A stretch of 64,000 nt of DNA from an uncultured Acidobacteriaceae bacterium (GTDB lineage Bacteria > Acidobacteriota > Terriglobia > Terriglobales > Acidobacteriaceae), in contig CAVWLH010000004.1 in NCBI GenBank assembly GCA_963755925.1, positions 14,858 to 78,857 of the forward strand. Reading direction: 5' to 3'. A model generated the notes under the pieces. That model saw only the letters and a list, made by a program, of their open reading frames with translations, searched no databases and was not told the origin of the DNA. This document shows, one piece after another, positions 39,600 to 56,549 of this stretch (its first letter is position 1; each line of letters opens with the position of its first letter). The position numbers and the translations under genes are program-made.

Positions 39600-40677
39600 A
39601 TGGCAAACGACGACAAGACCGAACGAGCAACTCCGCGGCGCCGCGACAAGGCGCGCGAGCAGGGACGGGTGGCGCGCAGCCGCGAGCTGGCGGGAGCGCT
39701 GATCGGCTTTGCCGGAGTGCTGGTAGTGCTGTGGGTCTCAGGCGGCGAGTTGCAGCGCTGGCGCAGCAGTTGGCGGCTGTGGACCGATTTGGCCTGGCAA
39801 AGCGACTTCAACCCCGGGACACCGATTTTGCTTTGGGTAGGGACGGCGGCGATGCGCTGGATCCTGGCGCCGCTCAGCCTGGTCTGGGTGCTGGCCGTAG
39901 CCAGCAGCGTGGCCCAGGGCGGCCTGGTCTTTTCGGCAGAAGCCTTGACCCCGAATATCGAGCGCATGAGCCCGGCGAAAAAACTGGGGCAGATGTTCTC
40001 GGTCTCCGGGCTGGCGCCGGCAGGCAAGTCGCTGGTTCCCTTTTCGGTGCTGCTGTATCTGGGCATCTCCATCCTGGCGCGCGACTGGGGGCTGCTGATG
40101 CGCGCCGCCCAGATGCCGGCCGCGGTGCTGGCCCATGTGGCCTACGACCGCGCCTTGGAGATTTGCTGGAAGTCGACCCTGGTGCTGCTGCTGTGGGCGG
40201 CGATCGACTACCTGCTGCAGCGGCAGAAGCTGGAGCACGAGCTGCGCATGTCGAAGCAGGAGCTGAGGGACGAATACAAGGAGACCGACGGCAATCCCAC
40301 GGTGAAATCGCGGCTGCGGCGGCTTGCAGCGCCAGATGCGGCGGCGGCGCATGTTGAAGGAAGTGGAGCGCGCCACCCTGGTCATCACCAACCCTACACA
40401 CTTTGCCGTCGCCCTGGAATACGGGCCCCTGATGCCGGCGCCGGTGGTGGTCGCCAAGGGCCTGAACGCGCTGGCCGAGCAGATCAAGGAGATCGCGCGC
40501 TGGCACGAAATCCCCATTGCGGAAAATCCGCCGCTGGCCCAGGCGCTCTATCGCAGCGTCGAGATCGGACAGGCGATTCCGGCGAAGTTATATGCCGCCG
40601 TGGCCGAGATTCTGGCCTTCATCCTGCGCGCGCAGATGCGGGCGCGGGCGCAGGCACGGCAGGCGGGCAGGGCATAA
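39600..40677 (+). pseudogene. flhB: flagellar export switch protein FlhB, frame-disrupted in this sequence
   Basis: The N-terminus DDKTERATPRRRDKAREQGRVARSRE...ELRMSKQELRDEYKETDGNPTVKSRLRR lies in the 39600 frame. The C-terminus with the autocleavage motif LVITNPTHFAVAL lies in ORF 40324..40677 and has its own stop. One switch near 40320. Confidence 0.9.
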
Positions 40678-40680
40678 GCC

Positions 40681-42770
40681 ATGGCCAATGCGATCGACAA
40701 ACCGCAGACCGGGCTGAGATCAGTAAGCGGGCCTCGGAGTGGATCATTCCGGTGGCGGCGGTGGCGCTGGTGTTCGTGATGCTGGTGCCGCTGCCGGCCT
40801 TCATGCTCGATCTGCTGCTGGCCATCAGCATTACCGCCTCGGTGCTGGTGCTGCTGTCGGCGGTGCACATCCTGCGGCCGGTACAGTTCTCGGTGTTTCC
40901 CAGCTTGCTGCTGTTGCTGACGCTCTTCCGCCTGTCGCTGAACCTGGCCAGCAGCCGCCGCATTCTGCTGCACGGCAACGAAGGCGCGGGCGCCGCCGGC
41001 AATGTGATTGAGGCCTTCGGGCAGTTCGTCGTCGGCGGCAACTATGTTGTGGGCTTCGTGCTCTTCCTCGCCTTGATCGCCATTCAGTACATGGTGATCA
41101 GCCACGGCGCGGTGCGCACTGCCGAGGTCACGGCGCGCTTCACCCTGGACGCCATGCCGGGCAAGCAGATGGCGATCGACGCCGACCTGAACGCCGGCAT
41201 CATCGACGAAAAACAGGCGCGCTCGCGCCGCGAGGAGGTCAGCCGCGAAGCCGAGTTCCACGGCGCCATGGACGGAGCGGCGCGCTTCAATCAGCGCGAC
41301 TCGCTGGCCACGGTGCTGATTACCGCCATCAACATCATTGCCGGCTTCCTGATCGGCGTCTTCCAGCTGGATGTGCCTTTTCGCGAGGCGCTGAAGACCT
41401 ACACCATCCTGACCGTGGGCGATGGCCTGGTGACCATCATCCCGGCGCTGCTGGTTTCGGTGGCCGGCGGCATCGTGGTCACGCGCTCTTCGTCGGACAG
41501 CAGCCTGGGCGCCGATGTCGGCAAGCAACTGTTCTCGCGCAGCCGCCCCCTGTGGATCGCCGCCGGCGCCATGGCGGCGCTGGCGCTGGTCCCCGGACTG
41601 CCCAAGATTTCCTTTCTGCTGATCGCCGTGGCCGCGGGCTGGGGAGCGCGGCGGGCCAAGCGCGAATTCGAGAAGCCGGCGGCCTTGTCCCCGGAGAACG
41701 CCGCCGGGCGCTGCCGGCGCGGCCGGTGCGGCCAAGCAGGATGCCCTGGAAGGTCTGCTGAAGCTGGACGACATCAGCCTGGAAGTGGGCTATGCGCTGG
41801 TTCCGCTGGTCGATGCCAAACAAGGCGGCCAACTGTTGCAGCGGATCAAAGCTTTGCGCCGGCATCTGGCGCTGCAGCTGGGCTTCATCGTGCCGCCGGT
41901 GCATATCACCGACAACCTGAAGTTGAAGCCGCGCGAGTATGTGGTCTTTCTGCGCGGGGTGGAGATTGCGCGCTGGGAGCTGCGCGACGATTGCCTGCTG
42001 GCCATCAGCTCGGAGAGCGAGCCGCCCCAGTTGCAGGGCCTGGCTACCAGGAGCCGGCCTTCGGGGTGGCGGCGCTGTGGATCGTTCCCGGCCTGCGCGA
42101 GCAGGCGCTGGCCCGCGGTTATGCCGTGGTGGACCAGACCTCGGTGATTGCCACTCATATGGCCGAGGTCATCAAGCAGCACGCCTACGAACTGTTGAGC
42201 CGCCAGGAGACCAAGCGCCTGCTGGACCGGCTGGCCGAAAGCCAGCCCAAGCTGGGCGAAGAGCTGGTGCCCAAGCTGATGAGCCTGGGCGAGGTGCAGA
42301 AGGTGTTGCAGCAACTGCTGCGCGAGCAGGTCTCGATTCGCGATCTGCCCACCATCCTGGAAAGCCTGCTGGACACCTCGGCCGTGGGCAAGAACCCGGT
42401 GCTGATGGTGGAAGGCGCGCGCCAGGCGCTGGGCCGGGCGCTGGTGCATCCGCTGTTGTCCGACGATGGCGGGCTGCGGGTGGTGACCCTCGATCCCGGC
42501 ATCGAGGAGGAGCTGACGCGCGCCTTTTCGGGACAGGCGCCGGCGGGCAACACCAGCCTTGAGCCTTCGTTTGTCCGCCGCGTGCTTGAGGGTCTGAAGA
42601 AGCTGGCGGGGGAGCAGGTACGCATGGCCACGCCGGTGGTTTTCTGCAGCACTCCGGCGCGCTTTCATCTGCGCCGCCTGCTGGAACCGTTTTTGCCCAA
42701 GCTGGTGGTGCTGTCGCCGGGAGAGATTCCGCCGGTAGTTCAGGTGCAGTCGCTGGGAATGATTCGCTGA
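40681..42770 (+). pseudogene. flhA: flagellar export gate protein FlhA, frame-disrupted in this sequence
   Basis: ATG at 40681. GNYVVGFVLFLALIAIQYMVISHGAVRTAEVTARFTLDAMPGKQMAIDADL is the FHIPEP signature. The segment LKLDDISLEVGYALVPLVD...FIVPPVHITDN lies in another frame (ORF 41785..42147). About 3 switches (near 40.72, 41.69 and 42.05 kb). Confidence 0.9.
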
Positions 42771-42789
42771 AGACGATTTCGGCGAGAGC

Positions 42790-42860
42790 GAAGAACCAAG
42801 AATGAAGAACCAAGAATGAAGAACCAAGAATGAAGAAACCAAGAATGAACAATGAAGAAC
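42790..42860. repeat. tandem repeat, 14-bp unit GAAGAACCAAGAAT x4 plus partial units, immediately upstream of the fliA RBS
   Basis: Units at 42790, 42804, 42818 and 42832 (the last has one extra A), then gaacaatgaagaacg. It is flanked by the near-direct repeats gaagacgatttcg and gaagaacgattcg. Confidence 0.95.
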
Positions 42861-42879
42861 GATTCGATAAGGAGGCAGC

Positions 42880-43715
42880 ATGAGTGCCGCGCAGGCCTAC
42901 GAACAGATGCAGCAGACAGACGAAATGAACCGGCGGCGGAGAACTCCGAGCAGCTCTTGCTGGAGCAGTTGCCGCAGGTGAAGTACATCGCGCGCCGTAT
43001 CCACGAGCGGCTGCCGCAGCACGTTCCCTTCGACGACCTGCTGCACGCCGGCATCGTGGGGCTGATCGACGCCATGCACAAGTACGACGCCAGCAAGAAT
43101 GTGCGCTTCGCTTCCTACGCCAAGTTCCGCATTCGCGGGGCGATTCTCGACAGCCTGCGCGACATGGACTGGAGCCCGCGCGACCTGCGCCGCAAGGCGC
43201 GCCGCCTGGAAGCCGCCATGCAGAAGCTGCAAACCGAGCTGGGGCACTCGGCCACCGAGCCCGAGCTGGCCGAGGCCATGGGCATGACCCTGGAAGAATT
43301 TCAGCACATGCTGAACGAGATTCGCGGCCTCGAGGTGGGCAGCCTGCAGATCGAGTCGCTGGAGGATGGGCGGGAAACCGATCTGAGCGAGAGTATAGCC
43401 GGGCCCCCGGACCAGGACCCGCTGTCGCTGTACATGCGGACGGAGCGCAAGCAGATGCTGGCCGCCGCCATCGCCGTATTGCCGGAGCGGGAGCAGCAGG
43501 TGCTGGCCCTCTACTACCAGGAAGAGCTGACCATGAAGGAAGTGGGCGCGGTGCTGGGGGTAGGCGAGTCGCGGGTATCGCAGATCCATTCGGTGGCCGT
43601 GGCCCGTCTGCGCGCCATGCTGGCCAATGCCCAGCAAAGTCAGAGACGGGCGGCCGCGTTGCCCGCCCTCGGCGGCGAGGATGCAGAGGAAGCGGAGTCA
43701 TGGAAAAGGTCTTAA
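42880..43715 (+). pseudogene. fliA: flagellar sigma factor FliA (sigma28), 5' end frame-shifted in this sequence
   Basis: AGGAGGcagcATG at 42880 gives MSAAQAYEQMQQTDEMN. The conserved body lies in ORF 42852..43715: region 2 is DLLHAGIVGLIDAMHKYD and the region 4 HTH is LTMKEVGAVLGVGESRVSQIH. One switch near 42935. Confidence 0.88.
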
Positions 43716-44686
43716 GCCAGGGAGAGATCGACGCTCTGTTCCGCGCCGCCAGCGGCGACGCCACCGCCGCCCGGGGAGCTGCCGCCGGGGCCGGGGCCCA
43801 GATCGAGTCGTGGGACCTGCACCAGGCGGGGCTGCTGGGCAAGGAGCAGCTGCGCAGCGTCAGCCAGCTGCATGAAAGTTTCGCCCGCAACCTGACCAGC
43901 GCCATCGGCGGCTATCTGCGCGACACCTTTCAGGTTGCCCTGGTGGCGGTGGAACAGCTGGCCTACCGCGACTTTCTCGCCCGCTTTCCTGATCCCACCT
44001 ATTACGGCACCTTTCTGCTTCCCCCCAACCACGCCAGCGGCATCCTGCACCTCGACCTGAGCCTCGCCTTCCCGCTGGTGGACCTGCTGCTGGGCGGGCA
44101 GGGACAGATGCCGCAAAGCCAGGTTACGCGCGAGGTCACCGACATAGAAGAAAGCGTGCTGGAAGGCATTGGCCAGTCTATCTGCGGCGAGCTGCAGGTG
44201 GTGTGGCAGCCCCTCGGTCTCGAGGTCGCGTTCGAGCGGCGGCAGCCGGTCTCGCAGATGCTGCGCATCATGCCGCCGGAGGAGAAGACCCTGACCCTGA
44301 CCTTCGAGGTCACGATGAGCGACTCCAAAGGCATGTTGAACATCGCTTTTCCCTCCGTGGTCTCCAGCGCCCTGATGCGGCGGCTGCGCTCCGAGCTGGT
44401 GTACCAGCGCGCCCGGGGGCCGGCGGCGAACCAGGAGAGCATTGGCAAGCGGCTGCTGGAGTCAGGGGTGGAGCTGGAGCTGGCGACGCCCGCCATTGCG
44501 GTGCGCCTGGGCGAGCTGCTGACCTTGGAGCGGGGAAGGGTTTTGCCCTTGCGCCGCCACATTGAAGAGCCGGCGGTGGTGCGCCTGGGGGGACGCGACT
44601 GCTGGCTGGCGCGGCCGGTAGGCAGCCGCAACTGCCGCGCCGCCCAGTTGCTGGAATACCTTCCCCCGGCGGAAGCAGAGACATAG
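43700..44686 (+). CDS. fliM: flagellar motor switch protein FliM
   Basis: MEKVLSQGEIDALF is the CheY-P-binding N-terminal motif. A CheC-like middle and a C-terminal SpoA-like segment follow. 328 aa. Confidence 0.9.
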   Translation: MEKVLSQGEIDALFRAASGDATAARGAAAGAGAQIESWDLHQAGLLGKEQLRSVSQLHESFARNLTSAIGGYLRDTFQVALVAVEQLAYRDFLARFPDPTYYGTFLLPPNHASGILHLDLSLAFPLVDLLLGGQGQMPQSQVTREVTDIEESVLEGIGQSICGELQVVWQPLGLEVAFERRQPVSQMLRIMPPEEKTLTLTFEVTMSDSKGMLNIAFPSVVSSALMRRLRSELVYQRARGPAANQESIGKRLLESGVELELATPAIAVRLGELLTLERGRVLPLRRHIEEPAVVRLGGRDCWLARPVGSRNCRAAQLLEYLPPAEAET

Positions 44687-44708: not shown

Positions 44709-45629
44709 ATGAGTCCACAGGGGCAAAGCCAAAACCAGCTTGAGATTTACCGGCGGGCGTGGAGCGATAGTCTGGCCCTGCTGCTTTCGCGGATGGCCGC
44801 GGGAGAATGGCACATTGCAGCCGAACCTCCGGCCGCCGCCGTCCATGCCGACGATGCCGCTGTCGCGCGGGTCCGGATCACGGCCGCAGGCGGGTTGGCG
44901 GGTTGCCAGTGCTGTAGCTTCGCCGCCGCCGATCTGGCGGCGCTGCTGGGAATCTTTCTGGGCGAGGAAGTCTCGCTTGCCGGCGAGCCTGACGCCACGC
45001 AAAAGGAAGCGCTGGAGGAGCTGATACGGCAGTGGGCCGGGCTGGCGGCCAGCGCGCTGAAGCCTGACTTTGGGGAAGTCACATTGGAGGTGGCGCTGGA
45101 GGCTCCTGGCCCAGTCCCAAGCGGCGCCCAGTGGCTGCGGGCCACTGACAGCACCCGCTCCATCGCCGCCGCGCTGGAGCTGGACGATGTTCTCCGGGGA
45201 GCGCTGCACCCCTCCGAAGCCGGAAGCACGGCTCCGCCCGAAGCCAATTCCAACTCCAATTCCGACTCCAATTCCAAAGCTGGTCCCAGCTCTGGACCTG
45301 CATCGGAGTCGCCGCCGCCGCCCGCTTCCCGGCCCAACCGGGCTACGCCGCAAATTGAGGAGCTTCTGCGCCAGGGCAATCTGGAGTTGCTGATGGATGT
45401 GGAGCTGGCGGTGATGTTGCGCTTTGGCAGCCGCCAGGCCAGCTTGCGCGAAGTGCTCGATCTGTCCACGGGCGCGGTGCTGGAGCTGGACCGCGAGCTT
45501 CAGGAGCCGGTGGACCTGGTGCTGAATGGCCGGGTGATCGCGCGCGGCGAGGTGGTGGTGGTCGACGGCAATTACGGTTTGCGGGTAGTGGAGGTGGCGT
45601 CGCCGCAGCAACGGGTCAATAGTTTGTAG
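44709..45629 (+). CDS. fliN: flagellar motor switch protein FliN with a long N-terminal extension (FliY-like architecture)
   Basis: The C-terminal 85 aa, LELLMDVELAVMLRFGSRQASLREVLDLSTGAVLELDRELQEPVDLVLNGRVIARGEVVVVDGNYGLRVVEV, form a SpoA/FliN domain. The ~220-aa N-terminal part and an SNSNSDSNS linker are unassigned. Confidence 0.85.
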   Translation: MSPQGQSQNQLEIYRRAWSDSLALLLSRMAAGEWHIAAEPPAAAVHADDAAVARVRITAAGGLAGCQCCSFAAADLAALLGIFLGEEVSLAGEPDATQKEALEELIRQWAGLAASALKPDFGEVTLEVALEAPGPVPSGAQWLRATDSTRSIAAALELDDVLRGALHPSEAGSTAPPEANSNSNSDSNSKAGPSSGPASESPPPPASRPNRATPQIEELLRQGNLELLMDVELAVMLRFGSRQASLREVLDLSTGAVLELDRELQEPVDLVLNGRVIARGEVVVVDGNYGLRVVEVASPQQRVNSL

Positions 45630-45637
45630 AAGATCGT

Positions 45638-45867
45638 ATTCACCACGGAAGCACGGAGGACACGGAGAAGAAAGAAAAAGGCTCGAAAAGAAAGAAAAAA
45701 GGAAGAAAAGAAAAGCAAGAAAAAAAAGAAGAAAGAAAAGGCAAGAAAGAAAAGAGAGAACGAAAAGCTGGAAAAAAAAGAAGGAAAACGGAATTCGGGA
45801 ATTGTCATCCGATTTTCTTGCTTCCCATTTTTTTCCTCTCCGTGTCCTCCGTGCCTCCGTGGTGAAT
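45638..45867. repeat. 30-bp inverted repeat (ATTCACCACGGARGCACGGAGGACACGGAG family) enclosing a ~170-nt almost pure A/G tract
   Basis: Left arm 45638..45667, right arm 45838..45867 (1 mismatch). The interior is gaagaaagaaaaagg...gaaggaaaacgg. It lies between the fliN stop (45629) and the ATG at 45889. Confidence 0.9.
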
Positions 45868-45888
45868 TCGCTCTAAGGAGCAACGAAA

Positions 45889-46755
45889 ATGTCTCTGTCT
45901 CTGCGTACGGTATTGCCCGGCAGCTCGCCGATGGCGGCGCTGGCGGCGCTGCCCACCTGCGCCAGTCCCTTTTGCCCGCGTCCTCCCACTTTGTGGCAGC
46001 GCTGGTGGGCCCGGCATCAGGGTATCCGGCTGCATGAGGCTTGGTATTGCTCGCTGCTGTGCTTTCAGCAGGGACTGTTTCGCCGTATGGAGCAGGCGGC
46101 GCTGGCCAGCCCGCACAGCCTTCCCCGGCCCAACCGCATGCCGCTGGGGCTGATCCTGTTGTCGCAGGGCGAGATTACCGGCCAGCAACTGCGTCTGGCG
46201 CTCAGCCGCCAGCGGGCTGCGGGCAGCGGCAAGCTGGGCGAGTGGCTGATCAGCATAGGAGCGGTCGGCGAAGCCGAGGTCACTTCCGCCCTGGCGGCGC
46301 AGCAGGGATGTCCGTTGTTTCCGCTGGAGGAGCCGCAAGCCGTTCCCCCCAGAATGTATTGGCCGGAGCTGCTGGTGGAACGCTATCGCGCGGTGCCGGC
46401 TTTCTATAACCGGGCGCAGTCCAGCCTCTATGTGGGATTTCTGGAGCGGGTAGACCATGCTTTTCTGCTGGCGCTGGAGCGGATGCTGGGTTGCCGCACC
46501 CAGCCCTGCATCCTGCCTTTGTCCGCCTACAACCGCCAACTGGAGCTCGGCGCCCTCAGCGTGGAAAGCGAGACCATCGTGATCCACCAGCGCCAGAGCG
46601 GGGTGGAGATGACCCGCACCATCGGCAACTACGCCGAGCAGGTGCATGCCGAGCGCTGCACCGTAGTGGCTTGCGACGATTGCCTGTGGACCAGGCTGGA
46701 GTCGGCTGCCGGCCGCCATGTTGACTTCCTCTTTCGCTTGCCCACGGTGAGTTAG
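45889..46755 (+). CDS. stand-alone T2SSE_N/MshEN-domain protein with an N-terminal Cys4 motif (putative c-di-GMP receptor)
   Basis: Residues 85-108 (PLGLILLSQGEITGQQLRLALSRQ) and 115-138 (KLGEWLISIGAVGEAEVTSALAAQ) fit the tandem MshEN 24-mer pattern. Then QQGCPLFPLEE...ERYRAVPAFYN...LYVGF continues a GspE-N fold. C24-x4-C29...C54-x3-C58. No ATPase domain. Confidence 0.6.
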   Translation: MSLSLRTVLPGSSPMAALAALPTCASPFCPRPPTLWQRWWARHQGIRLHEAWYCSLLCFQQGLFRRMEQAALASPHSLPRPNRMPLGLILLSQGEITGQQLRLALSRQRAAGSGKLGEWLISIGAVGEAEVTSALAAQQGCPLFPLEEPQAVPPRMYWPELLVERYRAVPAFYNRAQSSLYVGFLERVDHAFLLALERMLGCRTQPCILPLSAYNRQLELGALSVESETIVIHQRQSGVEMTRTIGNYAEQVHAERCTVVACDDCLWTRLESAAGRHVDFLFRLPTVS

Positions 46756-46802
46756 GCTGGGCTCGGGCCGGGATACTCGACCACGCCGCCGGACACCACC
46801 GC

Positions 46803-46827
46803 TAAAGCCTCGGCCTCTGCTGCCGAT
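46803..46827 (+). promoter_or_regulatory. sigma28-like promoter (TAAA-N15-GCCGAT)
   Basis: TAAA at 46803..46806 and GCCGAT at 46822..46827, with exact 15-nt spacing. The -10 element overlaps the first ATG (46826) of the next ORF, so ATG 46847 may be the real start. Confidence 0.4.
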
Positions 46828-47728
46828 GGAAACCACAGGTCCCAATATGAATCTTGCTGCTCCCGCCCGCCCCCTTGCCCGGCCTCCCGTCGCAATCGCC
46901 ACCGAAGTCGATGCCAGCGCAACTATCCGTTGCGGCAGGTCGCCTGCTCTGGTGCTGCCGCTGCTGACCCGCTCCATATCCTTGTTAACGCTTTTGCTGC
47001 AGGACAGCGCCGTCGATCTGGAACTGGCGGGGGCCGTCATTGGGCTCGATCCCGCACTGGCGTTCGGCACCTTGCAGCTGGCCAATCGCGATCGCGGCGA
47101 AGGCGAAGACGCTATCTGGCAACTTCCGCTGGCGGTGGTGGCCGCCGGCCGCGAAGGCCTGCAGCAATTGCTCCAGCGCGCTCCCCGCATCGAGTGCAGC
47201 GGCCATATGGGTAAGCAGACGCGATTGTGCCGGCTGGTGGCGAACGCTGCCACCCGGGCCGCGGTTGGGCACCTGCTGGCGCGCGAGCTGGGAAGCTCGA
47301 TTCCGCGCAAGGCCTATCTTTCCGGATTATTGTTTGAGCTGCCGGCCATGGTACGGCTGGCCGCGCCGGCGATCTCGCAGGCAGAGTTGCTGCCTGCCAT
47401 GTGTCATGCCCTGCCGGCTGCGATGGTGAGGGCGGCCATGGGATTGCCCGACGATGGCGAAGAGGCTCCCCGCGACCCCCTGCTGGCCATCGGCCTGATT
47501 GCCGATGCGGTGCTCGGGGCTGTAGCTGAGCCGTCCTCGCTGACGGTTGCGCTGGAGGAGTTAGCTGCCGGCCCGCTCTGGCATTGCTGGGAGGCAAGCA
47601 GCACGCAGCAGCGTGCTTTCCTGCTGGAACATGGTTGCGAGCTGGCAGGCTGGGTCCGGGCCAATCTCGAGGACATGGATCCGTGGGAATTCATGGCCCG
47701 GCTGGAACGCCGCAACGGGTGGGAGTAA
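46826..47728 (+). CDS. HDOD-like domain protein (degenerate; HD replaced)
   Basis: LVLPLLTRSISLLTLLLQDSAVDLELAGAVIGLDPALAFGTLQLAN ... AYLSGLLFELPAMV parallels the HDOD pattern LP.LP....LL.LL.D......LA..I..DPAL...LLRLAN...AFLAGLLHDIGKL. Confidence 0.45.
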   Translation: METTGPNMNLAAPARPLARPPVAIATEVDASATIRCGRSPALVLPLLTRSISLLTLLLQDSAVDLELAGAVIGLDPALAFGTLQLANRDRGEGEDAIWQLPLAVVAAGREGLQQLLQRAPRIECSGHMGKQTRLCRLVANAATRAAVGHLLARELGSSIPRKAYLSGLLFELPAMVRLAAPAISQAELLPAMCHALPAAMVRAAMGLPDDGEEAPRDPLLAIGLIADAVLGAVAEPSSLTVALEELAAGPLWHCWEASSTQQRAFLLEHGCELAGWVRANLEDMDPWEFMARLERRNGWE

Positions 47729-47746
47729 CCATCCCGCGAGAAACTT

Positions 47747-48136
47747 ATGGAAGGGGAAGGCTTGCGCACATTAATTGTGGATGACTCTTCGGTGATGCGA
47801 AAGATTGTGGCGCGCGCGCTGCAGCAGGGTGGAGTCTCCAGCGGCGAGATCCTGGAAGCGGGCAACGGCGCCGAGGCCCTGGAGATCCTGCGCAACCAGA
47901 AAGTGGACCTGGTGCTCAGCGACATCAATATGCCGGTGATGGATGGGCTGGAATTCGTACGCCAGTTGCAGAGCGTGGAAAATGCCAAAGGTACACCGGT
48001 GGTGATGATCACCACCGAAGGCAGCGAGTCGCATGTGATGCAGGCAATTTCGTTCGGGGCACGGGGGTACATTCGCAAACCCTTTACCCCGGACCAGATG
48101 AAGCAGCACGTGCTGCCCTTGCTGCAGAAGGGATAG
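47747..48136 (+). CDS. cheY: CheY-like single-domain response regulator
   Basis: LIVDDSSVMRKIV...DLVLSDINMPVMDG...VVMITTEG...YIRKPF. The Asp pocket, phospho-acceptor D, T and K are all present. 129 aa. Confidence 0.88.
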   Translation: MEGEGLRTLIVDDSSVMRKIVARALQQGGVSSGEILEAGNGAEALEILRNQKVDLVLSDINMPVMDGLEFVRQLQSVENAKGTPVVMITTEGSESHVMQAISFGARGYIRKPFTPDQMKQHVLPLLQKG

Positions 48137-48158
48137 AGCTTCGCCCGCGAAGAGCAAT

Positions 48159-48243
48159 ATTCACCACAGAGACACAGAGGACACGGAGTTTGGAGTTTAT
48201 TTCCTGGTCCTTTCTCCGCGTCCTCAGTGCCTCGGTGGTGAAT
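48159..48243. repeat. 30-bp inverted repeat of the ATTCACCACRGAG family with a 25-nt loop
   Basis: attcaccacagagacacagaggacacggag (48159..48188) pairs with ctccgcgtcctcagtgcctcggtggtgaat (48214..48243). It sits 23 nt after the cheY stop. Partial copies lie at 3904..3922, 4855..4872 and 58294..58324. Confidence 0.9.
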
Positions 48244-48465
48244 GGCGGTTGCTTTCTGTTCAATATTTCCATAAAGACAGATACACTGAATCAGAATGCC
48301 CATTGCGGGGCCTGGGAGGGCCCTACGATCGACTAGTGGGTGCCTGGAGGTATCTAGGGCTGCCTGAAGCCGTGAAACGCGCCAGAAGGGCTGCAAACGC
48401 CAGCACAGCGGTTTCCCGATATGGAACTGGATGCCGGCCAGTTTTTCCTCGAAAGTACGCATGGG

Positions 48466-48599
48466 CTAGTGGTCAGTGGCCAGTGATCAGGGACCAGAAG
48501 AAAGGCCTGGCGCGCTCTGGGCGAGAATTTGGGTATCCTCACAACGGGCCACTGGCCACTAACCCAGTCCCCAGTCCCCAGCCCCCAGTCCCCAGCCCC
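48466..48599. repeat. 7-bp-period arrays: CTAGTGG TCAGTGG CCAGTGA TCAGGGA (48466..48493) and CCACTGG CCACTAA CCCAGTC x2 CCCAGCC CCCAGTC CCCAGCC (48549..48599)
   Basis: Read directly from the sequence. The first array and the start of the second are reverse complements (TAGTGGtCAGTGGCC versus TAGTGGcCAGTGGCC). The C-rich part is equivalent to the CCCCAGT heptamer. Confidence 0.95.
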
Positions 48600-48666
48600 T
48601 TTCTTAACCCAATCTAATCTCCCTCCCTGCTAAGTGCTTGAATTCCGCTCTGCCGCCTCTTTGCTT

Positions 48667-48682
48667 TGGCCTCCTCATTGCA
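48667..48682 (+). promoter_or_regulatory. sigma54-type -24/-12 promoter candidate upstream of flgF
   Basis: TGGCCTCCTCATTGCA fits TGGC-N7-TTGCA with canonical GG-N10-GC spacing. It lies 24 nt upstream of the flgF ATG and just before GGAG (48694..48697). Confidence 0.45.
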
Positions 48683-48705
48683 TTCATATCCACGGAGCGC
48701 ATTTC

Positions 48706-55644: not shown

Positions 55645-56549
55645 TCAGCACTCTCCAGTTATCGAATCTGGTGCTCAACGCGCTGGAGACCTCAGACACT
55701 TCCGAACAGACTGCGCTCACCCAGTTGACCAGCGGACGGCGAGTGAACGCCGATTCCGACGATCCCGCCGCCGCCGCGCAGGAAGTCAACATTTCTTCGC
55801 AGATGAACGACTGCGATCAGTATCTGCGCAGCATCACCAGCCTCACTTCGGAGTTGCAGACCGCCGATTCGTCCCTGAACTCGGTGGTCACTGCGCTGCA
55901 ACAGGCCATCTCTCTGGGCACCGAGGGCGCTAACGGCACCTTGTCGGCGCAAAACTGCAGCACCATCGCGCAGCAGATCAAAGGCATCTCGCAGCAGGTG
56001 TTCAGCGTGGCTAACCTCAGCTACAACGGCACCTACGTTTTTGGTGGAACCGAGACCACGAAGCCGCCTTATGTGCTGGACAACTCCGTTGCCGGTGGAG
56101 TTTAGTATCAAGGCAACGACGATGTGAACTCAGTCGAGGTGGCGCAAGGAGAATCCGTAGCCGTGAACCAGCCCGGCAGCCAGTTGTTCTCCTCTCAGGA
56201 CGCCAACGTCTTCGTGGCCCTGGACGACCTGACCACGGCGCTCGAATCCAATAGCTCTACCGACGACATCGGCGACGCGGTCACGCAGTTGCGTAGCGCC
56301 TACGATCAGCTTACGTCGGCGCGCACCTTCTATGGCAGCACCGTCGACCAGATCGTCGGCACCCAGGTCTTTCTGGACAGCGAGAGCCTTCAGCTTGCCG
56401 CGCAGCAGAACAGCACCGTCGGCATCGACATGGACGTCGCCGTAACCGACCTGACCAATGCCGAGGAGTCGCGCGCCGCCACCGTACAGGCCGCCTCCAG
56501 CATGAATGGCACTACCTTGATGGATTACCTGGCTAACATGCAGCGTTAG
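55641..56549 (+). pseudogene. flgL: flagellar hook-associated protein 3 FlgL, frame-disrupted in this sequence
   Basis: ATGA overlap with flgK. N-terminus LTSGRRVNADSDDPAAAAQ (flagellin-N-like). It continues in ORF 56124..56549 (YQGNDDVNSVEV...FYGSTVDQIV...). One switch near 56100. Confidence 0.85.

Follow-up and report, generated by a model that had tools for sequence, protein, structure and literature searches.

The protein designated X is encoded at positions 45889..46755 on the plus strand of a 64,000-nucleotide stretch of DNA, hereafter referred to as the window, from an uncultured Acidobacteriaceae bacterium (GenBank assembly GCA_963755925.1, contig CAVWLH010000004.1, positions 14,858 to 78,857 of the forward strand). 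On balance, X is probably a receptor for c-di-GMP (cyclic dimeric guanosine monophosphate) that is dedicated to the flagellum and takes the form of a three-part cytoplasmic signaling protein. This assignment is carried by a complete MshEN domain, the predicted ligand contacts of which are retained throughout a large protein family, and by the position of the gene inside the flagellar operon in 65 of 65 loci. The three-domain architecture of X, in which a putative zinc finger precedes MshEN and an additional domain follows it, is new.

Domain architecture and predicted ligand site of X

The gene for X is intact, with an ATG start and a TAG stop, and its product of 288 amino acid residues aligns over its full length with its homologues. 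The sequence AAGGAG, located at 45875..45880 on the plus strand and 8 nt 5' of the ATG, was read directly as the ribosome-binding site and is kept in a relative (locus L007). The ratios of nonsynonymous to synonymous substitution rates (dN/dS) calculated against three orthologues are 0.13, 0.26, and 0.24, and X is thus under purifying selection. An earlier note on this DNA had described an open reading frame of this length, lying between fliM-fliN and an HDOD/CheY pair and lacking an ATPase domain. The location is confirmed by the sequence read and by the Pfam assignments of the neighboring genes. Scans against Pfam and NCBIfam likewise revealed no ATPase domain (T2SSE, Walker A/B) in the protein, which ends at residue 288.

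The overall architecture of X is tripartite. A Cys4 zinc-finger-like module, delineated by residues ~22 to 60 (45952..46068, plus strand), displays the pattern C24-x4-C29 ... W52-Y-C54-S-x2-C58-F, with the four cysteines at the positions originally quoted. It is followed by MshEN_N, a bundle of four helices formed by residues 83 to 139 (46135..46305, plus strand), which begins with R83 and P85-L86-G87 and contains two tandem 24-residue motifs. The α/β subdomain that resembles MshEN_C, or T2SSE_N1, extends from residue ~140 to residue 224 (46306..46560, plus strand) on the basis of Foldseek and hidden Markov model alignments. Residues 225 to 288 (46561..46752, plus strand) adopt, in the AlphaFold2 model, a β-α-β-β-β fold with a near-invariant W267. 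The model of the complete chain, built on the family alignment, has a predicted local distance difference test score (pLDDT) of 84.4 and a predicted template modeling score (pTM) of 0.79. X had been taken for a free-standing MshEN protein, and this description does not hold because the Cys4 module precedes, and an extra 65-residue domain follows, the MshEN region. The expectation that the remainder of the chain continues a GspE-N fold is correct to near residue 225, where that fold stops, and incorrect for residues 225 to 288, which constitute a separate domain. When the full-length sequence was scanned against Pfam, no family was matched at E < 1.

The MshEN-type identity of X is borne out by both sequence profiles and predicted fold. 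Residues 85 to 138 cover 53 of the 53 positions of the NCBIfam model NF053729 ("c-di-GMP_motif, MshE-related") with an E-value of 8.2e-10. The NCBIfam model for the NfrB C-terminus also matches X (E 1.4e-7), as does that for the PilB N-terminus, which covers residues 86 to 247 (E 2e-4). A profile constructed from 40 members of the X family, when searched against the sequences of the PDB, matched Thermus PilF (4e-29), Geobacter PilB (3e-12), and Vibrio cholerae MshE (1.1e-8), with the alignments to PilF and PilB reaching residue ~215-218 of X. The closest structural match to the AlphaFold2 model in a Foldseek search is MshE with bound c-di-GMP (5HTL; E 7.7e-7 over 146 columns, with a TM-score of 0.75 on the target), and the c-di-GMP-bound GSPII-B domain of Thermus PilF is likewise among the best fold matches in the PDB. 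The model contains helices at residues 86 to 92, 98 to 111, 116 to 122, and 128 to 139, followed by an α/β unit between residues 160 and 224. From these profile and predicted-fold matches it follows that residues ~83 to 224 correspond to a full MshEN, that is, MshEN_N plus MshEN_C.

The first of the two tandem motifs, residues 85 to 108, is PLGLILLSQGEITGQQLRLALSRQ, and the second, residues 115 to 138, is KLGEWLISIGAVGEAEVTSALAAQ. Both 24-mers, the six-residue linker between them, and the replacement of arginine by proline in the first are exactly as initially reported. The canonical form of the motif is RLGxx(L/V/I)(L/V/I)xxG(L/V/I)(L/V/I)xxxxLxxxLxxQ. The main contacts of MshE with c-di-GMP are L10, L25, L29, L39, L54, and L58, the backbone of G11 and G40, and Q32 and Q61 (PMC5013675). 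Each single substitution of the conserved hydrophobic residues in that protein costs more than 10-fold in affinity, and the G11L and G40I variants show little or no c-di-GMP binding, whereas variants altered at R9, D12, or Q32 lose less than 5-fold (PMC5013675). Conservation at the equivalent positions of X was counted in 336 family members with a median identity to X of 34%. In the first motif, the position of L86 (MshE L10) is leucine, isoleucine, or valine in 99% of the members, G87 (G11) is conserved in 99.7%, L101 (L25) in 96%, L105 (L29) in 94%, and Q108 (Q32) in 90%. In the second, K115 (R38) is lysine or arginine in 83%, position 116 (L116 in X) is hydrophobic in ~100%, G117 (G40) is retained in 99%, V131 (L54) is valine, isoleucine, or leucine in 100%, L135 (L58) is leucine, valine, or isoleucine in 94%, and Q138 (Q61) is present in 100%. 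Thus, on the point of whether the two 24-mers and the four cysteines would prove to be conserved, both are, at levels of 83 to 100%. Judged from sequence and model, c-di-GMP binding by X is quite likely.

The cysteines of the N-terminal module, C24, C29, C54, and C58, are each conserved in 96 to 100% of the 336 members. In the AlphaFold2 model the module consists of a knuckle, a β-hairpin, and a helix, a layout typical of treble-clef zinc fingers, and it is accordingly described here as a putative zinc finger. Fragments from several members were scanned against Pfam, and no significant match to a curated family was found for either the Cys4 module or the C-terminal domain. With Cys4 fragments of relatives, only sub-threshold matches of the zf-MYND and metallothionein-like kinds were observed (zf-C6H2, 0.02; Metallothio_Pro, 0.0025). 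The C-terminal domain, when modeled alone, reached a pLDDT of 90.8. Its sequence profile matched nothing meaningful in the PDB, and a Foldseek search of the PDB with its model gave no match below an E-value of 0.017, with a weak resemblance to glyoxalase/bleomycin-resistance half-modules. Four other cysteines, C141, C202, C207, and C262 (encoded at 46309-46311, 46492-46494, 46507-46509, and 46672-46674), are 75 to 95% conserved in the family, which raises the possibility of a second metal site or a redox site.

Family distribution and the flagellar operon

A first homology search returned 152 relatives, all from Korobacteraceae/Terriglobales metagenome-assembled genomes and all either without a name or labeled as hypothetical. 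An exhaustive profile search yielded 339 cluster representatives with full-length matches at E < 1e-30, and 2,312 further clusters at 90% identity came from a search that started from a Terracidiphilus sequence. Database entries in which X appears to be fused to FliN or FliR (P0085, P0097, and P0426) were rejected as gene-calling read-throughs or frameshifts, the N-terminal X regions being out of frame with respect to the family consensus.

Gene order was inspected at 65 loci, namely those of 53 GTDB species representatives and 12 contigs encoding family members, with identities to X ranging from 28 to 93%. The genome scan was seeded with an alignment of closer relatives and is thus biased toward these, and the set of 12 contigs includes the most divergent members that could be looked up, at 28 to 40% identity. 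All of the labeled genomes belong to the Terriglobia except for one. The gene order is fliPQR-flhB-flhA-fliA-fliM-fliN-X-...-flgF-flgG-flgA-flgH-flgI, and X lies directly 3' of fliN in 64 of the 65 loci, the exception being L062, in which it lies directly 3' of fliA. The anticipated synteny with fliN and cheY holds, and none of the 65 loci is unrelated. The genes after X vary: HDOD and cheY, cheY and cheX, HDOD alone, all three, or none. These variable partners are without exception inputs to the switch or to signaling, and HDOD follows X in many loci, both close and distant. In the divergent lineages (L059-L063 and L065) HDOD is the commonest downstream partner, often with an additional HD (PF01966) match. 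The start codon of X overlaps the fliN stop codon in L061 and L063, and the stop codon of X is in turn overlapped by the start of HDOD in L063; these overlaps imply translational coupling of X to fliN and to HDOD in some genomes. X is an obligate, lineage-specific accessory member of the Terriglobia flagellar operon.

In the window, the operon extends from fliO (37421) to flgK/flgL (~56.5 kb), and all of the following genes are on the plus strand. The gene for FliA, a σ28-family factor with Pfam Sigma70 r2/r3/r4 matches, occupies 42852..43715, a position that is the same in all loci. It is followed by fliM at 43700..44686 (Pfam FliM, E 1.7e-35) and, directly 5' of X, by fliN at 44709..45629 (306 residues; Pfam FliMN_C, E 3.3e-20, at residues 227 to 297). 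The FliN protein is unusually long in that an N-terminal part of ~220 residues is without a Pfam match and carries an Asn/Ser-rich low-complexity stretch (NSNSNSDSNS). Beyond X are located the HDOD protein at 46826..47728 (Pfam HDOD, E 6.8e-7) and a CheY-type single-domain response regulator at 47747..48136 (Pfam Response_reg, E 1.3e-30; NCBIfam CheY, E 6e-24), with flgF and flgG after cheY. Many bacteria encode flhF and flhG, regulators of flagellar number and placement, between flhA and fliA. Neither gene was found in that interval in the window (39600-43715) or in the related loci L001-L065, where fliA directly follows flhA. A promoter scan of 45500-48700 revealed no σ70-like promoter, and a terminator scan of the same region gave one weak terminator-like site, in the loop of the first inverted repeat described below, with a yield below shuffle expectation.

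X is intact despite apparent frameshifts in other flagellar genes of the window. When compared with intact orthologues, apparent frameshifts occur in flhB (~40325), flhA (~41770 and ~42080), and flgK (54647 and ~55490), and flgL looks split at 56105-56124. Similar fragmentation of genes is seen in other long-read metagenome-assembled genomes of the set (L004 versus L005, and L059), and because of this assembly indels are a likelier cause than pseudogenization.

The X-HDOD-cheY segment is bracketed by two palindromic intergenic elements. The arms of IR1 (45631..45874) measure 47 nt, are 89% complementary, and enclose an A/G-rich loop of 150 nt; IR2 (48159..48243) has 30-nt arms and a 25-nt loop. 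Together they constitute one family (arms ATTCACCAC.GA..CAC.GAGGACACGGAG) and its sole two copies in the window, the core giving four matches where 0.1 is expected. The RNA hairpin of IR2 has a predicted energy of -49.7 kcal/mol (z = -6.4). A scan of the whole window against Rfam gave no family match; hence the window contains no c-di-GMP riboswitch, and neither palindrome corresponds to a known RNA. IR2 is recognizable in both L006 and L007. IR1 is found at the same place in L007 (81% identity) and is absent from the closer relative L006. The bracketing repeats pointed out previously are therefore real and of one family, but they do not bound a mobile cassette, an idea that was rejected because relatives without them have X at the same place in the operon. 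They look like repetitive extragenic palindromic (REP) sequences or miniature inverted-repeat transposable elements (MITEs), that is, lineage-specific intergenic palindromes that do not define X. Note that the IR1 loop at 45661-45786 is a nearly pure A/G tract composed of quasi-repeats of 8 to 13 nt in nine overlapping copies, and that this tract gives rise to a spurious Phe/Ser-rich open reading frame on the minus strand (45572..45883). Elsewhere in the window, an 803-residue open reading frame on the minus strand (26647-29058) encodes a Thaumatin-family domain (E 3.5e-13), a domain mostly known from eukaryotes.

Candidate functions of X

If X is a flagellar c-di-GMP receptor, its MshEN_N bundle would bind one molecule of c-di-GMP, as in MshE, NfrB, and PilF, and the bound ligand would alter the manner in which the zinc finger and/or the C-terminal domain interacts with a flagellar partner. 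This partner would most likely be the FliM/FliN switch complex, which is favored because X is encoded beside those genes together with CheY and CheX, other inputs to the switch. With such a partner, the motor would be slowed, biased, or halted at high levels of c-di-GMP, or assembly would be blocked. The adjoining HDOD protein would probably be part of the same module. HDOD proteins have been linked to flagellar regulation, and the Pseudomonas protein SadB binds c-di-GMP (PMC6543031), both of which fit a module shared by X and HDOD. The literature on GsmR, beside that on SadB, also ties HDOD proteins to flagellar control. A more elaborate proposal, possible and put forward only tentatively, is that X serves as an accessory subunit of the flagellar switch, uses its zinc finger or C-terminal domain to dock onto FliN/FliM, and acts as a c-di-GMP-gated brake or clutch, forming a dedicated second-messenger module together with HDOD in bacteria in which the operon is without flhF/flhG. 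X would then represent a third solution that evolved independently of PilZ and of the CheY-like Cle proteins and is built on the MshEN fold.

Several observations weigh against X as a flagellar c-di-GMP receptor, and most of these concern the ligand. The NF053729 score of 38.3 bits is only 0.3 bits over the cutoff of 38. The suggested check with PF05157 gave no match to X at E < 1, in contrast to the significant NF053729 and PDB profile matches, and weak precomputed PF05157 matches are present on some relatives. The canonical arginine of the first motif has been lost to an invariant proline: P85, at the position of MshE R9, is 99% conserved, so that the change is family-wide, and R83, two residues before it, is conserved in 97%. 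The motifs are separated by six residues in 74% of family members and by five, the canonical length, in 24%. Additionally, some MshEN domains are degenerate and fail to bind c-di-GMP, as exemplified by XpsE (PMC5013675). The same features, from the marginal score and missing Pfam match to the altered arginine, the longer spacer, and the non-binding homologue, would suit an X that is a structural flagellar accessory, for example one that tethers something to the C-ring, in which the MshEN-like domain functions solely as a protein-protein module comparable to the N1 domain of XpsE/GspE acting on GspL, and the operon context fits such a scaffold equally well. XpsE, however, differs from MshE at G11, L29, R38, G40, L54, L58, and Q61 (PMC5013675), and every one of these positions is retained in the X family at 83 to 100%. 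Such selective conservation of ligand-contacting residues at a median identity of 34% is hard to explain without a ligand. Moreover, proline directly precedes the Leu-Gly of the first motif in Escherichia coli NfrB (R488-P489-L490-G491) and in Pseudomonas aeruginosa PA14_29490 (WIPLGQ), for both of which c-di-GMP binding has been proven experimentally, and the arginine-to-proline change is thus not disqualifying. The length of the spacer also varies in the aligned MshEN domains of PilB and PilF, so a spacer of six residues is a deviation rather than an exclusion. A scaffold that is blind to the ligand therefore appears unlikely.

Membership in the operon does not by itself resolve the target, which counts against the motor assignment as well: FliA and the export apparatus lie just as near, and L062 has X directly after fliA. 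In Streptomyces, RsiG is armed by c-di-GMP as an anti-sigma factor against WhiG, a sigma factor of the FliA family. By analogy, X could be a c-di-GMP-responsive regulator of flagellar gene expression, either as an anti-sigma-like partner of FliA, which lies two genes 5' of X in every locus (directly 5' in L062), or through its Cys4 finger, which could bind nucleic acid and so act on the mRNAs or promoters of flagellar genes. The MshEN evidence supports such a regulator to the same extent as it supports a motor protein. Weighing on the other side, FlgM, the canonical anti-σ28 factor, is already encoded in the same clusters, X shows no likeness in sequence or fold to known anti-sigma factors or DNA-binding domains, and X adjoins fliN, not fliA, in all but the one locus; we regard a role in gene expression as improbable. 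If the frameshifts in the window are real, the flagellar system of this organism may be decaying, a further consideration against the receptor assignment. That X is what remains of an ATPase from type II secretion or a type IV pilus, or cargo of a cassette borne by the inverted repeats, with no flagellar role, is effectively refuted. Its closest characterized homologues are indeed the N-termini of PilB, PilF, and MshE, and the bracketing by two related palindromes is suggestive of a cassette, but the full-length three-domain architecture is kept in at least 336 sequences, with the 2,312 additional clusters of the clade-specific search, X is subject to purifying selection, and its operon position is the same where the palindromes are missing.

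Relationship of X to known c-di-GMP receptors

Like X, both MshE (5HTL) and the GSPII-B domain of Thermus PilF combine a four-helix MshEN_N with an α/β MshEN_C, and in all of them the tandem 24-residue motifs carry the conserved leucine, glycine, and glutamine ligand contacts. X differs from MshE and PilF in lacking the T2SSE ATPase, in having a Cys4 finger before and an extra domain after MshEN, and in being encoded in a flagellar rather than a pilus or secretion operon. The first motif starts with R-x-P-L-G in X versus R-L-G in MshE, and the spacer of usually six residues compares with five in MshE. The proline ahead of the first Leu-Gly is shared with the C-terminal MshEN of NfrB and with PA14_29490. 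Neither protein is flagellar, NfrB being a membrane glycosyltransferase that makes exopolysaccharide and PA14_29490 an ATPase of type II secretion.

An ATPase-less MshEN protein of broadly similar logic is P. aeruginosa PA3740, which binds c-di-GMP and affects swarming motility. Unlike X, it has its MshEN at the extreme N-terminus and no zinc finger, it occurs in β- and γ-proteobacteria, and its C-terminal part is a diverged T2SSE_N1, which differs in topology from the β-α-β-β-β module of X. The source paper does not mention a flagellar-operon location for it. PA3740 was catalogued in 2016 together with other MshEN proteins that lack an ATPase, namely (MshEN_N)2-CheX, CheA with MshEN_N, and REC and HD-GYP fusions. 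The (MshEN_N)2-CheX and CheA-with-MshEN_N proteins (Wang et al. 2016) are precedents for MshEN linking c-di-GMP to chemotaxis and motility. They are fusions to chemotaxis enzymes, whereas X is a separate protein with cheY and cheX as separate neighboring genes. None of the catalogued ATPase-less proteins has a zinc finger, is acidobacterial, or is encoded in a flagellar operon.

A functional analogy is proposed with YcgR/FlgZ/MotI and with Caulobacter Cle, small soluble c-di-GMP receptors that dock on the motor or switch and curb swimming. Their receptor folds are unrelated to that of X, in which neither a PilZ domain (marked by RxxxR and D/NxSxxG motifs) nor a REC domain was found in Pfam at E < 1. 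FlgZ is reported to be likewise encoded among flagellar genes (PMC3913639). The earlier note had held that a stand-alone MshEN protein in a flagellar operon was undescribed. In the open-access literature no description was found of an MshEN protein tied to the flagellar switch, nor of such an acidobacterial c-di-GMP protein, and to that extent the statement stands; ATPase-less MshEN proteins linked to motility were, as noted above, already catalogued in 2016. What is novel is thus the architecture of X and its setting in the flagellar operon, rather than the lack of an ATPase.

The Terriglobia rank among the most abundant bacteria of soil, and to our knowledge almost nothing is known about the control of their motility. 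The X family comprises thousands of sequences, all annotated as "hypothetical" or "T2SSE N-terminal domain," and it provides a candidate link between c-di-GMP and the flagellum in this class. A dedicated family model would allow this conserved flagellar-operon gene to be named correctly. If the assignment of X is true, the family would carry the MshEN receptor class beyond pili, secretion, and polysaccharide synthesis and into the operon of the flagellar motor.

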